Below, piece after piece: positions 1 through 63,807 of a stretch of DNA of 64,000 nt. The stretch covers positions 24,099 through 88,098 of the forward strand of contig JAOZPP010000001.1 in assembly GCA_029932675.1 (NCBI GenBank). The letters are read 5' to 3'. This DNA is from a bacterium. Lineage in GTDB: Bacteria > SM23-81 > DAOVCL01. Every line of letters starts with the position of its first letter. The first letter of the stretch is position 1. The translations under genes and the position numbers were made by a program. Under the pieces are notes generated by a model. It was not told the origin of the DNA. It ran no database searches and was given only the letters and a program-made list of their open reading frames with translations.

Positions 1-1067
1 TCATATTTTTCATATACAAGCCTCTTCGCTCTTTGTCCCATTGCATTAGCTAAATTCGGGTTCCGTAATAACCATAAGATAGCCTCGGCAAGGGGCTCAG
101 GTTGAGCCACTGGGACAATAAAACCACATTTATTCTTTTCTAGTAATTGCCGATTTCCCCCTACATCAGTGGCAACCACAGGTTTGCCACAGGCCATTAC
201 CTCCAAAATAGCCAAAGAAAGCCCCTCCTGCAAGGAGGGGAAAACTGCTAAATCAAATGTCTGAATGATTTCTTCGATGTTATCCCTGTGGCCAAGAAAT
301 CTAAAATAAGGCTCCAATCCCAATTTAACTACCAGATTGAAAAGTTCGCCTTTCAGTTCACCAGCCCCTGCTATAATGAATCTGGTTTGAGGAAATTGGC
401 TGACCACTTTTTGTACGGCCTTTATTAAGTATTCTTGACCCTTCACTTTTGTCAAGCGACCAATAGTTCCAACTACAAATGCATTTTCCTCTATTCTTAA
501 AGAGTTCCTTTCCACCTGAGTGCTAACCTTTTTCTTAAATCTACTCAAGTCTATTCCATTGGGGATAACCACAATTTTTTTTGCATTTATTCTGGCCCTC
601 GATATTAGAAATGCCTTTGTCTTTTCGTCCGGGACGATTATTATTTCAGAAAAAGAACTCTTAAACCGGTCATACAAATTCCTCACAAATTGGTTTCCCA
701 AATCTTCCCTACCTATTCCATGCCTCGTCTCAATTCTTACTGGAACCCGCTCCAAAGCAGCAGCTAACAGGGCCAATCTGGCTGTATGTGTATGTAATAA
801 TTCGAACTTCTTTAATCTCAAGAATTTCACAAAATTGGGGAAAATGTTTAAAAAAAGATGTTTATTTCTTGGAAAAACAGTAGTTTGAATCCCCAATTCT
901 CTTACCTTTCTAACAAAAGGACCCTGCGTAAAACAAGCCACCTCCACCAAAAACTTCTCTTTGTCAATTCCCTCAAGCAATGTTATCAAATGCCTTTCTG
1001 TTCCGCCAGATTGAGTAGGTCCGATAGTCTCCAAGATTTTATGTCTTGCTTTTCTCACTTTTTCCAT
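1..1067 (-). CDS. glycosyltransferase family 4 (GT1 fold), partial; 3' end lies beyond window start
   Basis: Minus-strand frame from ATG at 1065-1067 (MEKVRK...) stays open to position 1. It contains EGLSLAILEVMACGKPV, the typical GT4 C-terminal domain motif. Confidence 0.65.
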   Translation of the reverse strand, partial: MEKVRKARHKILETIGPTQSGGTERHLITLLEGIDKEKFLVEVACFTQGPFVRKVRELGIQTTVFPRNKHLFLNIFPNFVKFLRLKKFELLHTHTARLALLAAALERVPVRIETRHGIGREDLGNQFVRNLYDRFKSSFSEIIIVPDEKTKAFLISRARINAKKIVVIPNGIDLSRFKKKVSTQVERNSLRIEENAFVVGTIGRLTKVKGQEYLIKAVQKVVSQFPQTRFIIAGAGELKGELFNLVVKLGLEPYFRFLGHRDNIEEIIQTFDLAVFPSLQEGLSLAILEVMACGKPVVATDVGGNRQLLEKNKCGFIVPVAQPEPLAEAILWLLRNPNLANAMGQRAKRLVYEKY

Positions 1068-2047
1068 TGGGTTAAAGGGTGAGGTCGAAAAACAAAAACA
1101 AATAATTTAATAAAAGAGGAAAGTATACCCAAAATAGTGATCAAAACCGCACTTCGCAAATCTTTAGAAATCCTCAAATATTTCAACAACAAACAGAGAA
1201 AAGCTAAAATAAGAAAAGAGATAGAAAGTAACCCCCCGATCTTAATTCCTCCCCAAATAAAAAGAAAACCGATAATAAACAAAATTGTCACTGTCCTTTT
1301 CAAATGAAATATAAAACCATAATCTTTCAATTTTTTTTGTTTGAACTTTTTCCTTGCAATTAGATCCCAGCAGGTAAATCTATAACTCCTTTTTAAAAAT
1401 TTTGATAGAGTATCTGGTAAGGGATGAAAAACTATCAAATCCGAAATGTACTTTATTTTCGACCCTTCTTCAATGGCCTTATATATGAAAGCACGGTCAT
1501 ATCCGATTCTTAGAGTGGTATCAAATCCTCCTAAGCGATAAAAAATAGCCTTTTTATAAAAAAAATTCGTTCCAACAGGTGGAAACCGCTTTACGCAATC
1601 CTCCATATAGTTACAACTATTTTGAGGGAAGGAAATCGTGGAAGCTAAGGTCCTCTCAAAAAAATTTCTTGGATGGCAAACAAATGGTCCAAAAATTATG
1701 TCATTATCTTCAAATTTCTCACTGGCTTTTGATAACCAGTTCCTACTGGCTACTGCATCTCCATCAATAATGGCAATTCGGTCGTATCTGGCTTTCTCAG
1801 TACCTAAATTCATACAGGACGCAGCGCCTCTGTTCTCCTCTCTAAAGTAAATTCTGACATTTTTGTAATTTACAAACTCACTTAAAATTTCGTCAGAGGA
1901 GTCGGTAGATCCATCATCAACTATAATCAATTCAAACAAGTGGTAATCTTGATCTAATACAGATAAAACGGTATCCCTTACCGTTGAGGCATTGTTAAAT
2001 ACTGGTAGTATTACGGATATTCCCGATTTGATATTCATTGTCATCAC
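1055..2047 (-). CDS. glycosyltransferase family 2 with C-terminal TM segments
   Basis: N-terminal ILPVFNNASTVRDTVLSVLDQDY...IIVDDGSTD is a GT2 signature. Stop TGA at 1055-1057. Overlaps the next gene by 14 nt. Confidence 0.8.
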   Translation of the reverse strand: MMTMNIKSGISVILPVFNNASTVRDTVLSVLDQDYHLFELIIVDDGSTDSSDEILSEFVNYKNVRIYFREENRGAASCMNLGTEKARYDRIAIIDGDAVASRNWLSKASEKFEDNDIIFGPFVCHPRNFFERTLASTISFPQNSCNYMEDCVKRFPPVGTNFFYKKAIFYRLGGFDTTLRIGYDRAFIYKAIEEGSKIKYISDLIVFHPLPDTLSKFLKRSYRFTCWDLIARKKFKQKKLKDYGFIFHLKRTVTILFIIGFLFIWGGIKIGGLLSISFLILAFLCLLLKYLRISKDLRSAVLITILGILSSFIKLFVFVFRPHPLTQWKK

Positions 2048-3401
2048 AAATTTTACACTCTGAAATTCTTTTCAATACACTCGATAACGCCAGCATAATA
2101 AAAAATATCTTATATTCTTGTACTGATAAGAAAAAACCTGAAATTAGAAACCCAATAAACCCTACCATCAGCCCTCTTGAAATGGCTAACATTTCAAATT
2201 CTTGAAGATCCGAGAATCCCACAGACCCTTTTTGAAAATTCCTTAATGCTAACCAAATAATACCTATGAATGGAATGAATCCAATTACGCCCATCTCGGC
2301 AAGCACTTCTAAATACATATTATGAGCTAAACCTCCAAAAAGCCCAATATATCCTTCAGAAGCGTTAACAAAATTTCCCCAACCTATTCCAAGAAAAGGA
2401 TGATGTAAGAACATGGAGATGCCAGTCTTAAATAACATTAATCTCTTTATGATTGAAAGATCGGCTTGGAAATTTACAATTGATTTAACTCTTAACCAAA
2501 ATTGCGGAGGGACAACCTGAGAGAGAACAAAGGCAATTAGGAAAATACTGAGGAGATTTCGCTTTAGGTTTCGCCGATTGAACAACAATATACCTAAGAC
2601 TGAGACCAGGCCAACAACCCCTCCTCGGGAATAAGAGAAAACAATCCCCATAAAAAAAAGGAGAAATAGAACACTGAGGGCTATCCGTTTCCATATTATG
2701 ATCTCTTTCACAAGTAAAGTAAAAATGAGTGGAATGATCATGACTAAAGTAATTGCAAAATAATTAGGATCTGTACTAAAACCTCTCATTCGAAGCAAGT
2801 GAAAAACGTGTATGTATGTCCCCAACCCACTGCTGCAAAAACCATAAACAACACTAAAAGTTAAAATTCCAATAATTACAGAGAGGATTTCATTAATATG
2901 TTTGGACTTAGACACTAAGTTAATAACCAAAATAAAGAAAAAAAAGTCTTTTGACCACGTAAAAAGTGTTTTGAATCCGGTCTCAAAATTCCCTGTATTC
3001 AAAATTGAAAGACACCCTGCAAATAAGAAAACTAATAAGTATTTGCCTTGTTGGTCAAAATAAATGCGGGCTTCGCCGCGATGGACCAAGCGAATTATCC
3101 AAGCGGTGAAAGTAACTATAGCCAAAAAAGCGAATAAACCCTTAATCGAGAATCCATATTCAATCCCAGAAAACCTTATCGCGGCACAACTATATAAACC
3201 AAATTCCGGTTTGAGGTAGATAATACCAATGGTTGCCAAAATTGCCAAAAAAATTAGGAATTTAATTGGATAGGTGAATAAAAAATAAAAACAGCATATT
3301 TCAAGGAACACTAAACATAGAATGCTCCTGGCCCCATGATCCTTTGTGAGATACAGGTGTCTACCAGATGAGTAACCTTCAGCTTTATTTAGAGTTACCA
3401 T
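1995..3401 (-). CDS. O-antigen ligase / Wzy-like polysaccharide polymerase family membrane protein
   Basis: Polytopic membrane protein with FSYSRGGVVGLVSVLG, a Wzy_C-type motif. Sits in a glycan locus. Confidence 0.65.
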   Translation of the reverse strand: MVTLNKAEGYSSGRHLYLTKDHGARSILCLVFLEICCFYFLFTYPIKFLIFLAILATIGIIYLKPEFGLYSCAAIRFSGIEYGFSIKGLFAFLAIVTFTAWIIRLVHRGEARIYFDQQGKYLLVFLFAGCLSILNTGNFETGFKTLFTWSKDFFFFILVINLVSKSKHINEILSVIIGILTFSVVYGFCSSGLGTYIHVFHLLRMRGFSTDPNYFAITLVMIIPLIFTLLVKEIIIWKRIALSVLFLLFFMGIVFSYSRGGVVGLVSVLGILLFNRRNLKRNLLSIFLIAFVLSQVVPPQFWLRVKSIVNFQADLSIIKRLMLFKTGISMFLHHPFLGIGWGNFVNASEGYIGLFGGLAHNMYLEVLAEMGVIGFIPFIGIIWLALRNFQKGSVGFSDLQEFEMLAISRGLMVGFIGFLISGFFLSVQEYKIFFIMLALSSVLKRISECKICDDNEYQIGNIRNTTSI

Positions 3402-3444
3402 TCTCCTATCTTTACAAATATTCTTTCATGAAAACACTACCCCT

Positions 3445-4302
3445 CTATGCTGGTCCAATGTGAGAGGAGGAGTTTCCAAAAAGCTGCAGATAGCGATTAC
3501 GGATTTCTTCCCTCTTTACTATTCTCAGAGCATGATAAACACACAGTAGGGGAAATAATAAACCATAAAATAAAAGCACTGTGAGATATAGAAAAGGACG
3601 GAGATTGTTTAATGGAGGAACAAATACTGTAATCAAGACAATGGCCGTGACCAAAATCACTACTATTGTGTAATTAAAGGGCTTAATCAAGACATAGGAA
3701 AGTAGATTTTTCAATTGACTCGGCCTTGGGGAGGAAGAAAACTTAGAGTTAATACTTGTATTCACCGTAGGAACGCTGCGGTTACTTTTGCCAATCGCCT
3801 TTTTATACACCTCAATAATCGCTGAATCTTGGCAACCTAAATCCAACTGTTTATTGATGAACATAGAGATTGATGCCGAAAACGCCAGGGCGAAGATGCC
3901 CACCTTTGGTATCCCCTGATATGCGGCAAAGGCTAAACAGATAAAAGTTAAAGGATCAACTACACAATGGCCCACAAGGTCTAAGAATAAACCGTTTATG
4001 CTTGATTGGTTCCTTACCCGCGCTATCTCCCCATCGACACAGTCGAAGACGAACCAAAGCTGAAGGAGGAAAATACCTAAAAGCGATAACCCCGCCTTAT
4101 TAAAGGCTAACAGAATACTTCCAGCCACCCCAAAGCCAATAGAAAAGAGGGTAGCCTGGTTGGCGGTTATACCAAGGGGGAGGAGGAACTTGGTAAAATA
4201 GACGGAGATCTTCCTCCCTACAAGTTTACCATACCACCCGTCGTGAGTACGTGCTGGTTCCTGCCCCAGCTTTTTCAAATCCTTAATGGAATAAGCACCC
4301 AT
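3445..4302 (-). CDS. CDP-alcohol phosphatidyltransferase family protein
   Basis: Contains FDCVDGEIARVRNQSSINGLFLDLVGH, matching D-x2-DG-x2-AR...G-x3-D. Multi-TM. Confidence 0.65.
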   Translation of the reverse strand: MGAYSIKDLKKLGQEPARTHDGWYGKLVGRKISVYFTKFLLPLGITANQATLFSIGFGVAGSILLAFNKAGLSLLGIFLLQLWFVFDCVDGEIARVRNQSSINGLFLDLVGHCVVDPLTFICLAFAAYQGIPKVGIFALAFSASISMFINKQLDLGCQDSAIIEVYKKAIGKSNRSVPTVNTSINSKFSSSPRPSQLKNLLSYVLIKPFNYTIVVILVTAIVLITVFVPPLNNLRPFLYLTVLLFYGLLFPLLCVYHALRIVKREEIRNRYLQLFGNSSSHIGPA

Positions 4303-41843: not shown

Positions 41844-42047
41844 AAGAATCTATCCAAATTATGTACCGAATTCACAGCAACCCCGAGGAAAATCTCACAC
41901 CCAAATTGTTCCTCACCGGAGGTGCCATGTCTCTATCGAAATACAGCAAAAACGCTAAACGGTATGGAAAACACCATCGCTCGACTTTCAGGCACTCGAA
42001 AATGTTGATTCTCACGCTCTATTTGCATCAATCGCCTATAAGGTCAA

Positions 42048-42076
42048 TTGACCCCTAGTCGAGGATGTGTTATATT
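42048..42076 (+). promoter_or_regulatory. sigma-70-like promoter TTGACC-N17-TATATT embedded in 12-bp perfect palindrome GGTCAATTGACC
   Basis: -35 at ~42048-42053 and -10 at ~42071-42076. AAAGGGGG RBS and ATG at 42107. The palindrome is at ~42042-42053. Confidence 0.45.
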
Positions 42077-42106
42077 GGCTTGAACTTCTCAACCAAAGGG
42101 GGTCAA

Positions 42107-42916
42107 ATGAAGACTAACACACTCTTTGACAGAATGTCACCGAAGTCCCTGAGTGGCTTAATGGCCTCTCACTTTCAACACCAGTATAGGCTATCTCCTC
42201 AAGCAGCCAAGACTATCTGCCATGATGCAGTGTTATTTCGCAATCTCTTAGGTCAGCCAGCAAGGAGTGAGGGACAGATCCTCTATTATGCTGTCAAGCT
42301 GGGGGAGCCACCCAGCAAGCCCATTAAGGACTGTCAACTCCTCCCGGTGAAGCTGACTGTGTTTGACCCTGATGATCTTGACTACCGCAGAAGGTATGGT
42401 CAGAGGAGGCTGCTGGGATATATTATGATCCGCATCTGCCGGGAGGCCTATGAGCAGGGAGCAGTGTTGAGCATTGAGGATGTTGCCTCTATACTCCACA
42501 TCAGTGAAAGCACTGTGAAGCGGTATAAGAAGGCCTTAAGCCTTGCGGGTACTCCCCTGATCCTGCGGGGTGATACCGCTGATATGGGGCCGGGCACCTG
42601 CCATCGGGTTCCCATCGTTGAACTCTTCCTGCAGGGCTACTCAGAGACCGAGGTTGCCCAGAGGGTCAACCATAGCTTAGAGAGGGTGGAGGCCTATCTC
42701 TACGATTTTTTGCGGGTCTCCCTGCTGCTTGCCGATGGCTATAGCCCTGGTATGGCCTCCCGGATTGCCCATCTGTCCAAGGGCAAGGTCTCCTCTATCA
42801 GCCAACTGTATCACCGCTTGGCCCAGGATGCCTTCTACCAGGAGCCTCTGGCCAAGGTCTTGCAGCTCTACCAGTTGAGGCGGGACCTGAAAAAAGGAGG
42901 ATCTCCAGATGAGTGA
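42107..42916 (+). CDS. hypothetical protein with two predicted helix-turn-helix motifs (paralog A; DUF1670-like)
   Basis: HTH1 GAVLSIEDVASILHISESTVKRYKK. DMGPGTCHR box. HTH2 LQGYSETEVAQRVNHSLERVEAYLYDF. Paralogous to the next gene, with higher GC than the flanks. Confidence 0.6.
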   Translation: MKTNTLFDRMSPKSLSGLMASHFQHQYRLSPQAAKTICHDAVLFRNLLGQPARSEGQILYYAVKLGEPPSKPIKDCQLLPVKLTVFDPDDLDYRRRYGQRRLLGYIMIRICREAYEQGAVLSIEDVASILHISESTVKRYKKALSLAGTPLILRGDTADMGPGTCHRVPIVELFLQGYSETEVAQRVNHSLERVEAYLYDFLRVSLLLADGYSPGMASRIAHLSKGKVSSISQLYHRLAQDAFYQEPLAKVLQLYQLRRDLKKGGSPDE

Positions 42917-43709
42917 CCATTTCCCGCGGCGCCACTACAAGGCCGTCTATGGTCCCTTGGCTCAGAAGACATTGCACAACCTGCTGAAGCGAGAGCTTAT
43001 GGAGGAGTTTGGCTTTGAGAGTATGGGGTTGATTGCCGATGCCTTAATCAACCGCTTGCTGGAGCTGGTGGATACCTACACCCCTGAGCACTTCAGGCTC
43101 CTTCCTGGTCAGATGCTCTGGTTGGCTGTGGCCCGACAGGAGAAGGTGGGATATGGCAAGTCTATGTTGAGAAGCAAGTTAGTGCCAGTGATAGTCACAG
43201 TGATCAGTGCTGAGGACCTGGAAGCAATGGCAGAGGAGAGGGTTGACTTCAGAGAATTGAGACCCAAGGTAGTGGCTCGCATTCTTAAGGAGACTGATGC
43301 TCAAGGTGGGGTGCTGGCCTTAAGTGATGTGGGGATTATGCTGAGCATCAGTCCGGCAGCGGTCTCCTCTGCTGTCAAAGCCTACCAGGCAGAGCATCCA
43401 GGTGAGGTCTTGCCTTATCGAGGCACCTTGCATGATATGGGACCGACTATGACCCATAAGTTGCAGGCCATAGAATTGAAGCTCCAGGGATGCTTAACCC
43501 AGGAGATTGCCAGACGCATCCATCATGACCCTCAGAATGTGGACATCTACCAGACAGACTTTGAGAGGGTCTACCAGTTGTACCAGGATGGCAAAACCCC
43601 TCGCCAGATCAGCTTTCTGACCAAACTCTCCCTACATCTGGCAGAGGAATATATAGAGCTGATCAACAAGTATGTGGCTGAGGATGACTCATCGGTGTCA
43701 AAGAGCTAA
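42909..43709 (+). CDS. hypothetical protein with two predicted helix-turn-helix motifs (paralog B)
   Basis: GGVLALSDVGIMLSISPAAVSSAVK, DMGPTMTHK and LQGCLTQEIARRIHHDPQNVDIYQTDF align with paralog A. The start overlaps the upstream stop (ATGAGTGA), indicating translational coupling. Confidence 0.6.
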   Translation: MSDHFPRRHYKAVYGPLAQKTLHNLLKRELMEEFGFESMGLIADALINRLLELVDTYTPEHFRLLPGQMLWLAVARQEKVGYGKSMLRSKLVPVIVTVISAEDLEAMAEERVDFRELRPKVVARILKETDAQGGVLALSDVGIMLSISPAAVSSAVKAYQAEHPGEVLPYRGTLHDMGPTMTHKLQAIELKLQGCLTQEIARRIHHDPQNVDIYQTDFERVYQLYQDGKTPRQISFLTKLSLHLAEEYIELINKYVAEDDSSVSKS

Positions 43710-43878
43710 TGTCAAGTGGTCGGAACTGCCCACCTTATATTAGCTGGATAGCATCAGGGGGGCAACTGGAGAGGTGGACAGTGGAGACCACTCCACACTT
43801 CTTTGAGCAAAAGGGGGAAAACCCTCACAAAGCTTTAATTTGGCTAAGTAATCCCTCTCAGTTAACCGAGACTGGGGT

Positions 43879-44880
43879 TCAATTGACACTATCGCTTGTT
43901 TCAGAAATTGCTACCACTAAGCTTCGGACAAAATAGGCTAATGGTTCATTGCCTGCACAGACCCTTCTAAGTAAAAATAAATTAGATCCCTTGCTTACAT
44001 GCCCAAATTCTGCTGTGCAAGCATAGCGGTAACCCCTCTTAGCGACTAGTTCCTTCACCTTTTCATTGTAATGTTCGTTTAACCCAATAGGATAACAAAA
44101 CCCTGTAACGGGCTCGTCTAACTCTTCTTCGATTTTTTCTTTCGAGGCTTTAAGCTCTTCCTCAACTTCTTCCTCAGAAATGGTAGTTAAATTGTAATGA
44201 TTCACCGTGTGAGAACCAAACTCTATGCCATCCTTATGCATTTCCCTTATTTGCTGCCAGGAAAGCAGGCGGGCTGTTCGCTTTGGCCTGATGGTGGACC
44301 TTAACTCAGTGCGTAGTTGCTCAAGTATGTGGCGAATTTCAGCATCTTTAAGTCTTGCCAGGTATTTTTCCACCTCAAAATTCTTCCAGGTTGAGAATTC
44401 CACTTGCGGCATCTGCCTCTTTAAAACTGAACCAAGCTTTTCTCTAAATTCTTCGTGAGGAGAAAATTCCCCCATCCCTCGAATTTCATCCCACCAGAAC
44501 ACCTTGTCTGTCTCAATATATCCGGTAACCAAGAAAACTGTAGCTGGGATGCTATACTTCCGTAGTATTGGGAATGCAATATTATAAACGCTTTCGTAAC
44601 CATCATCAAAGGTTATAGCAATAGCCTGGGGGGGAAATTGTCCCTTTCCCCTAAGAGAATCTACTAATTCGTTCAACGAAATGGGATACATATAATCTTG
44701 CAGAAACCGCATTTGTTCCTCAAATCTGTTTCTCCAATGGGTGGTTATGTTATGATACATGAGAATAATCGCTCTGCTTTTCCCTTCTCTATGCAGAAGC
44801 CGATGATAGTAACCGAATTTATATGCTAAAGGAACTATTGTTTTTCTGGCGATGGATTTTACTACAAACTTCTTTACCAT
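43879..44880 (-). CDS. polysaccharide deacetylase (NodB-homology domain)
   Basis: AITFDDGYESVYNIAFPILRKYSIPATVFLVTGYI...FGSHTVNHYNL. Confidence 0.7.
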   Translation of the reverse strand: MVKKFVVKSIARKTIVPLAYKFGYYHRLLHREGKSRAIILMYHNITTHWRNRFEEQMRFLQDYMYPISLNELVDSLRGKGQFPPQAIAITFDDGYESVYNIAFPILRKYSIPATVFLVTGYIETDKVFWWDEIRGMGEFSPHEEFREKLGSVLKRQMPQVEFSTWKNFEVEKYLARLKDAEIRHILEQLRTELRSTIRPKRTARLLSWQQIREMHKDGIEFGSHTVNHYNLTTISEEEVEEELKASKEKIEEELDEPVTGFCYPIGLNEHYNEKVKELVAKRGYRYACTAEFGHVSKGSNLFLLRRVCAGNEPLAYFVRSLVVAISETSDSVN

Positions 44881-50497: not shown

Positions 50498-51232
50498 CTA
50501 TCTTGTCTGCAGATTCCCCTTCCCAGATCTTCTGGTCCCCGGTCGCGGTTTCTTATAATACTTGTAGCCGTAATACTTGTAGTCATAGTAATATGGAAGG
50601 ACCTTCTTCGCGTTGTTCAGCACCACCCCAATCAGGTTCACCCCCCCCTCCCTGAGGAGGTCCACTGCCCTCTTAGCCACCTCCCTCTGGGTCTTCCCCG
50701 CCTCTATTACCAAGAGGACCCCGTCCATCTCAGAGCTCAAGATCAATGGGTCACTCACCGGGATGACTGGAGCACAGTCAACGACTATGGTTTGAAAGTA
50801 AAATTTGAGCTCGGAGAATATCTCTTTTATTAGGTTAGAGTTGAAAAGCTCCACTGGGCTTCCGTCCAAGATCCCACTGGTGAGAACCTTCAGGTTCGGC
50901 AAGGGGGTGGATTTGAAACAGGTCTTCAAGGGAACCCCCTTAGTAAGAACTTCGGCTATTCCCCCCTCTCGTTCCAAACCAAAAAGGCTATGTTGAATCG
51001 GCCGGCGGAGGTCACAGTCCACCAAGAGAGTCTTGGTCTCCCTATATTTGGAAATGGCTATAGAGAGGAAAGCGGCCAGAGTACTCTTTCCTTCCCCCAC
51101 AGATGGGCTGGTGATCAAGAAATTCTTCATCTCCCCTTGGGAGGATAACCCCCTGATCCGGGAGTAAAGCCTCCGGAACTCCGTGGGACCGGGAGACTCC
51201 TCGTCGTAAAAAGAGAGTATGTTGTTGTTCAT
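50498..51232 (-). CDS. BY-kinase (CpsD/CapB-type tyrosine autokinase, P-loop ATPase) with C-terminal tyrosine cluster
   Basis: Walker A SPSVGEGKST, A' LLVDCDLRRP, B IVVDCAPV. C-terminal YYYDYKYYGYKYYKK. Confidence 0.75.
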   Translation of the reverse strand: MNNNILSFYDEESPGPTEFRRLYSRIRGLSSQGEMKNFLITSPSVGEGKSTLAAFLSIAISKYRETKTLLVDCDLRRPIQHSLFGLEREGGIAEVLTKGVPLKTCFKSTPLPNLKVLTSGILDGSPVELFNSNLIKEIFSELKFYFQTIVVDCAPVIPVSDPLILSSEMDGVLLVIEAGKTQREVAKRAVDLLREGGVNLIGVVLNNAKKVLPYYYDYKYYGYKYYKKPRPGTRRSGKGNLQTR

Positions 51233-51282: not shown

Positions 51283-51339
51283 TAGCAATGATCAATTAGC
51301 AAGCTCAAATTAAGAATTGAGCAATGGTCAATTAACAAG
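51283..51339. promoter_or_regulatory. paired direct repeats TAGCAATGATCAATTAGCAAG / GAGCAATGGTCAATTAACAAG flanking an imperfect palindrome; candidate regulator binding site
   Basis: 18/21 identical copies spaced 36 bp, upstream of the BY-kinase gene. A related ATCAATTAGCAAG lies at ~52541-52553 upstream of the TPR gene. Confidence 0.35.
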
Positions 51340-51403: not shown

Positions 51404-52522
51404 CTATTTCATAAAGACCTTGAGGAGGAGGTGGAAACCCTTGCTGTCGTTTTCAGCGAGCTTTAGGTTCCTTTTCGCCTTTTCATAGTCTGGGTTTATC
51501 CTTAATGCCTGTCTGAAGTGGTGGATTGCCCGTTCGTTGATATACTTGCAGAGGACGGTATAGGCTATCCCTAAATCGTTATGGATATCCGCAAAGTGGG
51601 GATTCTTCTTAGCAAAATCCTCTAAGCTTTGAATGTACTGCCTCATCGTGGTATCATCTATCTCATCCTCCCTATGTAGAAACCGGAGATAGAAGTCCAG
51701 GGAGAGGGATTCAGCTTGCGAAATGCCCTCCTCGTCCCTGGCCTGATTAAACTCCTTCCAAGCCTCCTCCAATTGATCATTGAGGAGGTGCGCCTTTCCC
51801 CTCTCAAAACCCTCATTACGATAGCCAGGGTTCAATGTTGCCGCCTTTTCCATTGCTTCTAAGGCCTTCCTCTTCAGGTCTGTAGCCAGGGAGTAATCCT
51901 CCTTTACTATTCCATTGAGGATCAAGGCCAAGCTCAGGTTATAATATGCCTCTGCATAATAAGGATTGATCCCCACAGCTTTCTGAAAGCTGTCCGCAGC
52001 AAGCTTGCATTTTTGGGCCTTCAAATAGGCTGCCCCTAAGTTGTTATAGTAGTCCGCATAGTCAGGATCGATGCTTAAGGCCCTCTGAAAGGATAAGATG
52101 GCCTCTGCGGTTCTCTCTAAAGCCAGTTGAGCTTTACCTAAATTGTTGTATATTTTAGAGATGCTCGGATTTGCCCTTATGGCCTCCTGAAATTCGGCAA
52201 TCGCTTCCTCATACATTCCCTTTTCCAGGAAGGCTAAACCAACCCTGTTCTTCGCCTCCGCCTGATTAGAACCTGCAAGGCTCTCGGAAAGCTTAAGAAG
52301 GGATTCAGTCTCTTCCTTCTTCTCCTCATGAAGGGATTTAACCAAGGCTAAAAGAGATTCGTCAGATATCTGCGGATCATAGGAAATTTCATAAGATTTT
52401 ATTAAATTTCCTCCTTCGAAAAGGGAGCAAATTATCCTGTTTTGGAAGGCGTTATTTGATGTCTGAAGTAGATATTCTTTCCCTTTAGCCTTTATGGAAC
52501 TGCTAAAGCCAAAATTAGCCAT
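51404..52522 (-). CDS. TPR repeat protein (exopolysaccharide locus)
   Basis: Multiple TPR motifs (AIAEFQEAIRANPSISKIYNNLGKAQLAL...). Start taken at ATG 52520-52522 (MANFGF). The listed longer ORF begins at a TTG. Confidence 0.6.
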   Translation of the reverse strand: MANFGFSSSIKAKGKEYLLQTSNNAFQNRIICSLFEGGNLIKSYEISYDPQISDESLLALVKSLHEEKKEETESLLKLSESLAGSNQAEAKNRVGLAFLEKGMYEEAIAEFQEAIRANPSISKIYNNLGKAQLALERTAEAILSFQRALSIDPDYADYYNNLGAAYLKAQKCKLAADSFQKAVGINPYYAEAYYNLSLALILNGIVKEDYSLATDLKRKALEAMEKAATLNPGYRNEGFERGKAHLLNDQLEEAWKEFNQARDEEGISQAESLSLDFYLRFLHREDEIDDTTMRQYIQSLEDFAKKNPHFADIHNDLGIAYTVLCKYINERAIHHFRQALRINPDYEKAKRNLKLAENDSKGFHLLLKVFMK

Positions 52523-52577
52523 CTTCCTCCTCACAAACAAATCAATTAGCAAGTTAAAGTAAACCCCAAGTGAGCCA

Positions 52578-62079: not shown

Positions 62080-63807
62080 TTGAAGGTAAAAATTGCCCGA
62101 TACGCTGGTTTCTGTTGGGGAGTAAGAAGAGCGGTAAATATGGTTCTGGAGGCTGTACACAGAAGGGAACCGAACCTATTCACCTATGGGGCTCTCATCC
62201 ACAATCCTCAAGTCACTGGGCTCCTCCAAAACCTCGGCGTGGGGATTATAAATAACCCCTCGGATGTTACTCCCAACATCAACCTTTTCATAAGGTCGCA
62301 TGGGATATCCCCTCGGGAGAGGAAAGAGCTTCAGGACCGGGGAGCAAAGATCCATGATGCCACTTGCCCTTTGGTGGAGGTCGTGCAGAAGACGATCGAA
62401 AAATTTTCCCAAGATGGATATGGAATAATCATCGTCGGAGAGGCTCACCACCCCGAGGTATCCGCTTTATTGGAGTTTGCTCAGGGCAAAGGGGTAGCGA
62501 TCTCGAAAGAGGATGAGGTGAGGAAGCTTCCCCAATGGGAGAAGGTGTGCGTGGTTGCCCAGACGACCCAGGAGAGGAGAACTTTCAAAGAATTGGCTAA
62601 ACAAATTAGGGCCAAATACCGAAACTGCAGAGTATTTGACACCATCTGCCCAGCAACTGGAAAGAGACAGGAGGAGGTGCGAAAACTTTGTTCCAGGGTA
62701 GAGGCGATAGTGGTAGTTGGGGGGAGAAATAGCGCCAATACAACCCGCTTAGCCCAGATCTCCCGCTCCTTAGGGAAACCTACCTTCCATATAGAAACTG
62801 AGGAGGAGATAGGAAGGAAAGATTTTATAGGGGTAAAATCTATAGGTATAACTGCAGGAGCCTCCACGCCCAATTGGATAATTCAAAGGGTAGTGGAGAG
62901 GATAGAAAACCTGGAGAGGAGCGGTGGGTTGAGAGGACTTTTCTTCCGCGGGATAAGGTTCCTCATCCGCAGCAACCTCTACCTAGCCTTTGGAATAGCC
63001 TGCTTCAGCTATGCAGCAAGCCGCTTGCAGGGGGGCGAGCCCAGACTGGCTTTCCTTCTGGTAGCCTCGGGATACGTCTTCTCTATGCACCTTATCAACC
63101 ACTATACAGACCCCTCCCCGGCGAATTTCAACGAACCCTACAGGGTTTCCTTCTACCGCCAGCATAGATCCGCTCTGCTGAGCTTAGCTCTCCTCTCGTT
63201 GGTACTTACCATATCTTTATCCATTTATTTGGGTTCTCTCCCCTTCATCCTGCTTGCTTTTTTATCCTTAATGGGGGCAGTTTATCGGTTAAAGATCATC
63301 CCCCCTAGCTGGCCAATACTTCCTTATCGAAGGTTAGTGGAAATACCAGGCTCGAAGGATATCTTCCTCGCCTTGGCCTGGACCCTGGTAATAGTGGCTC
63401 TCCAGGGCCTGAGCAAGGGGAATAAGCTATCGCCTTCCTTGGGAGTAGCCTTTGCCTTCACCTTCATCCTCTCTTTGGTTAGGTCTACCCTCTTCAGCCT
63501 CAAGGACATTCAAGGGGATAGAATCGTGGGGAGAGAAACCTTACCGATAATCTTAGGAAAGAAGAAAACAAAACTGTTTCTGGTGACCATTTTAGCCCTC
63601 CTTAGCCTCCTCCTCCCCTTCTCCTGGATGCGGGGGTGGACATCCTCCCTAAGCCTCTGGTTACTCCCTACAGTGGCCTATTCTTACTTCTACCTTTTCC
63701 TCTACCATAAAAGAGTTATCTTTCAAGGTATTCTTTCCGAGGCGGTAGTGGATACGGGCTTTATCCTCTCCGGTGTCAGCGGTTATCTCTGGTCTCTTAT
63801 CCACTAA
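62080..63807 (+). CDS. ispH: fusion protein: 4-hydroxy-3-methylbut-2-enyl diphosphate reductase (IspH/LytB) N-terminal domain + UbiA-family prenyltransferase-like membrane domain
   Basis: IspH motifs GFCWGV, DATCPLV, GEAHHPEV, VVAQTTQ, ICPATGKRQ, VVVGGRNSANTTRL, GITAGASTP. C-terminal ~290 aa has 8-9 TM helices with UbiA-like NHYTDPSPANFNEPYR and KDIQGDRIVGRETLPI Asp-rich motifs. Confidence 0.75.
   Translation: MKVKIARYAGFCWGVRRAVNMVLEAVHRREPNLFTYGALIHNPQVTGLLQNLGVGIINNPSDVTPNINLFIRSHGISPRERKELQDRGAKIHDATCPLVEVVQKTIEKFSQDGYGIIIVGEAHHPEVSALLEFAQGKGVAISKEDEVRKLPQWEKVCVVAQTTQERRTFKELAKQIRAKYRNCRVFDTICPATGKRQEEVRKLCSRVEAIVVVGGRNSANTTRLAQISRSLGKPTFHIETEEEIGRKDFIGVKSIGITAGASTPNWIIQRVVERIENLERSGGLRGLFFRGIRFLIRSNLYLAFGIACFSYAASRLQGGEPRLAFLLVASGYVFSMHLINHYTDPSPANFNEPYRVSFYRQHRSALLSLALLSLVLTISLSIYLGSLPFILLAFLSLMGAVYRLKIIPPSWPILPYRRLVEIPGSKDIFLALAWTLVIVALQGLSKGNKLSPSLGVAFAFTFILSLVRSTLFSLKDIQGDRIVGRETLPIILGKKKTKLFLVTILALLSLLLPFSWMRGWTSSLSLWLLPTVAYSYFYLFLYHKRVIFQGILSEAVVDTGFILSGVSGYLWSLIH

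Follow-up and report, generated by a model that had tools for sequence, protein, structure and literature searches.

We analysed a 64,000-nucleotide stretch of bacterial DNA (contig JAOZPP010000001.1, positions 24,099 to 88,098; hereafter the window), in which two overlapping open reading frames (ORFs), orfA and orfB, lie on the plus strand inside a cluster of exopolysaccharide and capsular polysaccharide (EPS/CPS) genes that is low in guanine plus cytosine (GC). An earlier reading of the letters, the original prediction, had described this pair as a GC-rich cassette with palindromic flanks, and had proposed that it is either a regulator pair for the EPS locus or a small mobile or invertible DNA-binding module. 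Alignment to copies in other metagenome contigs placed the whole element at 42035..43893 of the window on the plus strand, and its size is set at 1859 base pairs (bp) because close copies share exactly the same end bases. The features of the element are listed below.

42035..43893, plus strand: complete element, very probably mobile, from exact-end alignment to the copies L083/L084/L085/L086 and L109, with right junctions also in L081 and L111
42035..42060, plus strand: left terminal inverted repeat, CCTATAAGGTCAATTGACCCCTAGTC, which contains the 12-bp palindrome at 42042-42053
43868..43893, plus strand: right terminal inverted repeat, which ends in GACTGGGGTTCAATTGACACTATC and contains the site at 43877-43888
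42048..42076, plus strand: predicted sigma-70-type promoter TTGACC-17-TATATT, a consensus match only (10 of 12 positions, TG before the -10)
42107..42916, plus strand: orfA, DUF1670 paralog A, 269 amino acids (Pfam PF07900, E 7e-44), its start agreeing with relatives of 268 amino acids
42909..43709, plus strand: orfB, DUF1670 paralog B, 266 amino acids (Pfam PF07900, E 5e-52)
43710..43797, plus strand: imperfect hairpin directly 3' of the orfB stop (arms 43710-43735 and 43772-43797), from an inverted-repeat search

Genes, ends and composition of the cassette

Both gene products belong to DUF1670, an uncharacterised family against which a profile search had been suggested. Specifically, A matches PF07900 with 150.2 bits (model positions 26-217 of 220) and B with 176.9 bits (1-220 of 220), each above the Pfam gathering threshold of 25 bits. 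The two proteins are also 36% identical (BLASTP) and homologous over 237 columns in a profile comparison, and these results together indicate that A and B are full-length paralogs, in agreement with the two overlapping plus-strand paralogs that the original prediction had described. Their genes are translationally coupled and overlap by 8 nucleotides (nt), with AGGAGG falling within the final orfA codons. Comparison of the window copy with that of contig L083 gave ratios of nonsynonymous to synonymous substitution (dN/dS) of 0.039 for orfA and 0.127 for orfB, indicating that both ORFs are kept by purifying selection. The orfA product ends in ..LKKGG in most relatives, with the codons AAA AAA GGA GGA (window 42887-42911), which form both the orfB Shine-Dalgarno sequence and an A6G run; a +1 shift at this position would fuse A and B in frame.

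The predicted excess of GC over the neighbouring genes was confirmed by computation. The element has a GC content of 0.521 against 0.385 and 0.414 in the 5 kilobases (kb) on either flank, and GC at third codon positions is 0.64 in its genes against 0.35-0.48 in neighbour genes; its GC lies near that of the parts of the window outside the island (0.47-0.48). The copies in L083 and L109 also have a GC content of 0.521, with flanks there at 0.461, indicating that high GC is a property of the element and not of the island.

The similar palindromic sites that had been noticed at both flanks proved to be parts of terminal inverted repeats. The left site is a perfect 12-bp palindrome, GGTCAATTGACC, at 42042-42053, the right site is GTTCAATTGACA at 43877-43888, and both fall within a 23-nt inverted repeat that is 83% complementary (42038-42060 and 43870-43892). 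The motif TCAATTGA occurs twice in the element against an expectation of 0.02. The near-consensus promoter was likewise found where it had been placed, with its -35 hexamer inside the left palindrome. Half-sites of these palindromes are frequent in 42035-43893, with 14 occurrences of GTCAA/TTGAC against 3.5 expected and 12 of GGTCA/TGACC against 3.7 expected, where the expectation comes from mononucleotide shuffles only. They are concentrated toward both ends (42043, 42048, 42102 and 42126; 43697, 43711 and 43883), and may represent additional binding half-sites or an effect of composition.

The hairpin after orfB differs between copies. In L083 (2459-2560) it has a near-perfect 19-bp stem in which GTGGTCTCCACTGCCCACC pairs with GGTGGACAGTGGAGACCAC with one mismatch, whereas in the window copy (43707-43800) it is degraded, with three substitutions in one arm relative to L083. 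This structure may be a terminator or an element of the end structure. The 184-nt 3' region as a whole has no Rfam match and gave folding z-scores of just -2.1 and -2.6.

Copies elsewhere and the insertion footprint

We found the cassette with the same ends in several unrelated places. A copy 95.2% identical to that of the window is present in contigs L083, L084 and L085, where it aligns exactly to 42035..43893 with unrelated sequence on both sides, and contig L086, 1862 nt long, consists of the element plus 3 nt. A copy in a third context (L109) is 96.5% identical, and L081 and L111 provide two further right junctions at 43893, the final 66 nt of the element matching L081 at every base. In L083 the element lies within a restriction/helicase gene, and in L109, L081 and L111 it lies beside other genes. 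Related elements behave similarly: one gammaproteobacterial metagenome-assembled genome (CALOFM01) has three 1.89-kb copies that are 99.4-99.6% identical and occupy different sites, and Pontiella-group and Methanoperedens genomes contain more multi-site families with sharp common boundaries. The contigs that carry orfB relatives also tend to be the size of the element, with a median longest contig of 2004 nt and 106 of 120 at or below 3 kb, as an assembly-breaking repeat would give, in a collection in which most contigs are short anyway. As in insertion sequences (IS), this is a discrete unit that is found with identical ends in different contexts and that has terminal inverted repeats. Thus, segment 42035..43893 is with high probability a mobile element.

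These copies also bear on the proposal that A and B form a dedicated transcriptional regulator of the EPS/CPS cluster that was acquired with the island or adapted to it. The position inside the cluster, the sigma-70 region 4/LuxR type of the helix-turn-helix units and the predicted promoter of the pair's own are what such a regulator might have. However, the cassette recurs at 95-97% identity and with identical ends in places unrelated to EPS, including a helicase gene that it disrupts, and at the window locus it overwrites the stop codon of a deacetylase gene. In the wider family, the pair with matching inverted ends is found in dozens of unrelated contexts and phyla. Operators for such a regulator are also missing where they had been suspected. 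The motifs at 51.3 and 52.5 kb, which the original prediction had related to the flanking palindromes, have only TCAATT in common with the end sites, and there is no enrichment of end-site-like sequences elsewhere in the window: six matches to GGTCAATTGACC with at most two mismatches were counted where 2.6 are expected, and the element ends account for two of them. We consider a role as EPS regulator very improbable.

The motifs at 51.3 and 52.5 kb were ruled out as further A/B sites, being a separate exact 12-mer. This 12-mer, TCAATTA(G/A)CAAG, has three exact occurrences (51292-51303, 51328-51339 and 52542-52553) in two intergenic regions upstream of the minus-strand genes 50498..51232 and 51404..52552, and could serve the EPS/kinase genes as an operator or promoter motif. 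Elsewhere in the window, a 575-amino-acid ORF at 62080-63807 joins an IspH/LytB domain (residues 3-276) to a UbiA prenyltransferase domain (residues 304-541).

The same alignments separate the two halves of the other proposal, that of a small mobile or invertible module: mobility is borne out by identical ends in unrelated flanks, and inversion is not. A site-specific invertible segment or recombination cassette (Hin/Gin-like or integron-like) would use the palindromes as crossover sites, and two similar palindromes that have a central dinucleotide and enclose genes for DNA-binding proteins at a distance of about 1.84 kb have this appearance, as does a weak match to HTH_7. However, the unit common to the copies runs 7-9 nt past the palindrome on the left and 5-6 nt past it on the right, so that crossover does not occur at the palindrome centres, and the two ends of a single element differ in their central dinucleotide. 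Neither protein has a serine-recombinase catalytic domain, no attC-like structure or Rfam match is present in the element, and no flipped copy was seen, since all nine fetched contigs of the window family have the same internal orientation. An invertible or integron-like cassette is thus a highly unlikely explanation.

The insertion in the window lies in a region where almost all genes from 1 to 56 kb are on the minus strand and where the EPS/CPS genes on either side encode a Polysacc_synt_3 flippase, a polysaccharide deacetylase, GT4 glycosyltransferases and a GNAT protein. The element is antisense to this low-GC cluster, between the deacetylase and flippase genes and upstream of the latter. 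The features at its junctions are the following.

43879..43893, minus strand: final four codons (D-S-V-N) and stop of the polysaccharide deacetylase ORF 43879..44880, supplied by the right terminus of the element
42034, no strand: left copy of the putatively duplicated target nucleotide (G), with flanks reading ..ATCG, element, GCTT..
43894, no strand: right copy of the putatively duplicated target nucleotide (G), from flank comparison

When the window flanks are joined and one G is removed, the deacetylase ends in ..S-E-T-S-D-stop, and its orthologue in contig L098 ends in ..S-E-D-G-D-stop. Thus, the insertion replaced the deacetylase stop, added S-V-N to the protein and placed 1.86 kb between the deacetylase and flippase genes. 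A comparable result was obtained for the Res/DEAD helicase gene that is split in L083, where the joined flanks give a long ORF only after 1 nt is removed; the restored junction, ..LKYFQYLAV joined to LFTEIVLDNL.., aligns without gaps to uninterrupted Res/DEAD proteins at 74-81% identity. In four insertions of a sister family (L087, L088, L112 and L116), removal of the element plus 1 nt brings the flanking 7-nt repeats back in phase. Exactly one nucleotide was therefore gained in all six testable insertions (window, L083, L087, L088, L112 and L116). Frame restoration is ambiguous for insertions in high-GC gammaproteobacterial and Methanoperedens DNA, where spurious long ORFs arise and where one insertion lies upstream of a gene start. 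Of 18 insertions from five families, 12 have the same nucleotide next to both ends (binomial p 2e-4 to 6e-3), and a classical target duplication of 2-10 bp is found in none of the 18. Because six of six insertions gain one nucleotide, flank bases match in 12 of 18 and no longer duplication is present, the footprint fits a 1-bp target duplication, which would be of unusual length.

Several observations weigh against these conclusions. The abutting nucleotides differ in six of the 18 insertions, a difference that mutation, recombination among copies or a nucleotide carried over from the donor may explain, and we know of no IS family with a 1-bp target duplication. The 64-kb window has one copy only, and neither an excision product, nor a circle junction, nor a true empty allele of the exact window site was found. 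The deacetylase orthologue in L098 is 72% identical and is not syntenic downstream, so that it served for comparison of the C-terminus only. Finally, promoter activity and DNA binding by A and B are predictions.

Two further observations concern the target regions. The sister-family elements lie inside arrays of 7-nt TNNGATC repeats (AGATCT or CGATCT), always after ..ATCT or the equivalent position (L087 1-87 and 1880-1964; L088; L112 1900-1945 and 3737-3780; L116 780-807 and 2600-2630), which reflects either a target preference or hosts that are rich in such arrays. In L098, which comes from the same metagenome as L083, the ORF that follows the deacetylase orthologue (2900-3866) presumably encodes a protein resembling UDP-GlcNAc 2-epimerase, judged by eye, and has several runs of (G/A)ACTCAA heptamers that are apparently in frame.

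Distribution and protein architecture of the DUF1670 family

A family scan that used one genome per species found 80 loci, which are spread over more than 15 phyla of bacteria and archaea. The hosts include Anaerolineae, Gammaproteobacteria, Kiritimatiellota/Pontiella, Lentisphaerota, Planctomycetota and Nitrospirota among bacteria, and Methanoperedens, Altiarchaeota and Methanomicrobiales among archaea. In nearly all of the 80 loci an A-type gene immediately precedes a B-type gene, no third gene is part of the unit in the loci examined, the elements are 1676 to 1891 bp long, and each genome has few copies (1-3). When 1.84 billion representative proteins were searched by profile, 1514 clusters (50% identity) matched at E <=1e-3, and relatives were found on none of 2.9 million viral contigs or 72,556 plasmids.

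Inverted repeats are also a property of the family. When the region upstream of A is compared with that downstream of B, the best inverted 14-mer has at least 12 of 14 matches in 33 of 43 loci, compared with 22 of 150 mismatched locus pairs used as control. The family end site approximates a 12-bp palindrome, TAAGG(G/T)CA-NN-TG(T/A)CC, 6-9 nt from each tip, in which 5-bp arms are separated by a 2-bp spacer; its sequence varies by lineage, and the outermost bases of the element show no conservation from one lineage to another.

Elements with 86-92% nucleotide identity are found in bins whose assigned phyla or domains differ, such as Methanoperedens on one side and Desulfobulbaceae and Halomonas on the other (L012, L013 and L016 vs L017 and L019; L042 vs L043; L030 vs L034, L064 and L065), which points either to recent horizontal transfer or to mis-binned short repeat contigs. 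Two contigs (L114, at 95-3066, and L115) have one DUF1670 element without its right end followed by a fragmented second element of a different family, whose end motif, CCCCGTACTCAA, is like that of L005; this arrangement looks like a nested or tandem insertion.

With regard to the proteins, only helix-turn-helix modules of the sigma-70 region 4/LuxR type are recognisable in A and B, together with a weak match to the resolvase helix-turn-helix HTH_7 in the Pfam search and a weak NCBIfam match to the N-terminal part of IS630 (E 0.02). Profile and fold searches of A and B found no DDE/DEDD RNase H-like fold with an acidic triad, no serine-recombinase (Resolvase) catalytic domain and no AAA+ domain. 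Likewise, neither protein has a Pfam or NCBIfam match to the tyrosine-recombinase Phage_integrase domain or a structural match to it, a Y1_Tnp or Rep match or a Rep-like fold of the HUH type, or any of the partner domains of LuxR and sigma proteins (receiver, autoinducer-binding, sigma region 2). Thus, in contrast to its ends and its mobility, the coding part of the element has no recognisable transposase. What the paralogs do share is a set of invariant polar residues, R-G-x3-D-x-G-P-x3-H-K/R, then H, then V-D/E-x-Y-x2-D-x2-R. Invariant positions include D176, H183, K184, H206, Y214 and R220 of B and D159, H166, H189, Y197 and R203 of A. Conserved R, H, K, H, Y and R residues are present, but lie within 50 residues of the helix-turn-helix region, unlike the architecture of tyrosine recombinases.

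Natural fusions were found among the relatives. Three proteins (P0198, P0203 and P0291; 528-546 amino acids) join A and B in a single chain, four (P0176, P0179, P0181 and P0187; 930-952 amino acids) contain 3-4 DUF1670 units, and in a single case (P0284, 400 amino acids) DUF1670 is fused to a DnaG-type CHC2 zinc ribbon; a known catalytic domain is present in none of the DUF1670 fusions found. NCBI names relatives "DUF1670 domain-containing protein" at most, and the literature searched does not mention DUF1670 or PF07900, with broader keywords returning nothing relevant.

Candidate mechanism and relation to known elements

Overall, we read 42035..43893 as an intact copy of an undescribed insertion-sequence-like element with a DUF1670 pair that would act at its ends, and assign this statement as a whole a probability of about 0.65. 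A description of the family as mobile was not found in the literature searched.

A and B are likely to be end-binding transposition proteins. Each would consist of an N-terminal domain and three helix-turn-helix units joined by the conserved R-G-x3-D-x-G-P-x3-H-K/R linker, and the two would act jointly, probably as a hetero-oligomer, a mode of action supported by the natural A-B fusions. The pair is predicted to bind the subterminal palindromes at both ends and to bring the ends together, and since the left site and the -35 hexamer overlap in the window lineage, binding there should also repress the pair's own promoter. Antisense insertion at the deacetylase stop codon would then have duplicated one target nucleotide.

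Whether the pair itself cuts and joins DNA is close to an even question. The wide host range and the lack of a third gene favour the pair as the catalyst, and the lack of a known catalytic fold favours a helper. The more specific proposal that orfA and orfB encode an unrecognised class of transposase, namely a hetero-oligomer built of nothing but helix-turn-helix units and a small N-terminal domain, with an active site formed from invariant residues, a 1-nt stagger in cutting the target and the standing of a new IS family present throughout Bacteria and Archaea, is tentative and falls a little short of even odds. The candidate active-site residues in such an enzyme would be those of R-G-x3-D-x-G-P-x3-H-K/R ... 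H ... Y-x2-D-x2-R.

The principal alternative is that the element is mobile but non-autonomous, with A and B only binding the ends and regulating, and with a host enzyme or a transposase acting in trans to cut and join, as in Xer-exploiting elements or in mobilisation like that of miniature inverted-repeat transposable elements. This would suit proteins that look like pure multi-helix-turn-helix binders without a known catalytic fold, and it would suit a copy number of 1-3 per genome. However, a host range that spans several archaeal lineages as well as more than 15 bacterial phyla, and 86-92% identity between elements in bins of different phyla, argue against a lineage-specific helper, and a third gene is never found within the unit. 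In addition, the invariant charged and aromatic residues of both paralogs (R, D, H, K, H, Y, D, R) exceed the apparent needs of DNA binding, and the variation of end sites by lineage is what would be expected if the element's own proteins, and not a common helper, recognise them. Non-autonomous movement is thus unlikely, although considerably less so than either an EPS regulator or an invertible segment.

Comparison with known systems places the DUF1670 pair apart from each of them, in that all prokaryotic IS known to us use DDE, DEDD, HUH, serine recombinase or tyrosine recombinase chemistry. IS21 (istA/istB) is similarly compact, with two coupled consecutive ORFs, terminal inverted repeats and subterminal protein-binding repeats, the last being a predicted function in the present element. 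In IS21 both ORFs are needed, IstA is a DDE transposase, IstB is an AAA+ ATPase and the duplications are 4-8 bp; in contrast, the ORFs described here are paralogs of one helix-turn-helix-only family that has neither DDE nor AAA+ domains, with an apparent 1-bp duplication. IS630 and the Tc1-mariner elements read their inverted repeats with two helix-turn-helix units and a conserved basic/glycine-rich linker, as is predicted for A and B, and make a very short duplication (TA, 2 bp). However, the IS630 protein ends in a DDE domain of its own, whereas DUF1670 proteins are a paralog pair without DDE and without a TA target.

With IS110, IS607 and IS200/IS605 the element shares a target duplication that is minimal or absent, outer tips of low conservation, and recognition elements that are subterminal in place of conserved terminal dinucleotides. 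These encode DEDD, serine-recombinase and HUH enzymes, respectively, but none of those domains is present in the DUF1670 pair, and the element has no Rfam RNA. XerC/XerD and TnpA/TnpB of Tn554 resemble A and B as side-by-side paralogs, with a presumed hetero-oligomer on sites made of two half-sites; unlike DUF1670, which has no Phage_integrase match, they are tyrosine recombinases (RKHRH-Y, 6-8-bp overlap). Finally, LuxR/GerE and sigma-70 region 4 share the helix-turn-helix type, whereas DUF1670 proteins lack a partner domain, have an apparent three helix-turn-helix units plus a specific N-terminal domain, and are encoded in a mobile unit.

What emerges is a compact, evidently mobile element with a broad host range whose two genes match none of these five chemistries. 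If the pair is catalytic, it would constitute a new class of DNA transposase that is small (2 x ~270 amino acids), uses short defined end sites and leaves a 1-bp footprint; if it is not, the element would move by means of a helper that is common to bacteria and archaea. At the window locus, the cassette is best regarded as an insertion that altered the deacetylase C-terminus and not as a part of EPS regulation. For DUF1670, with its ~1,500 clusters, the result provides a biological context, that of mobile DNA which breaks metagenome assemblies and which can be mistaken for local regulators.

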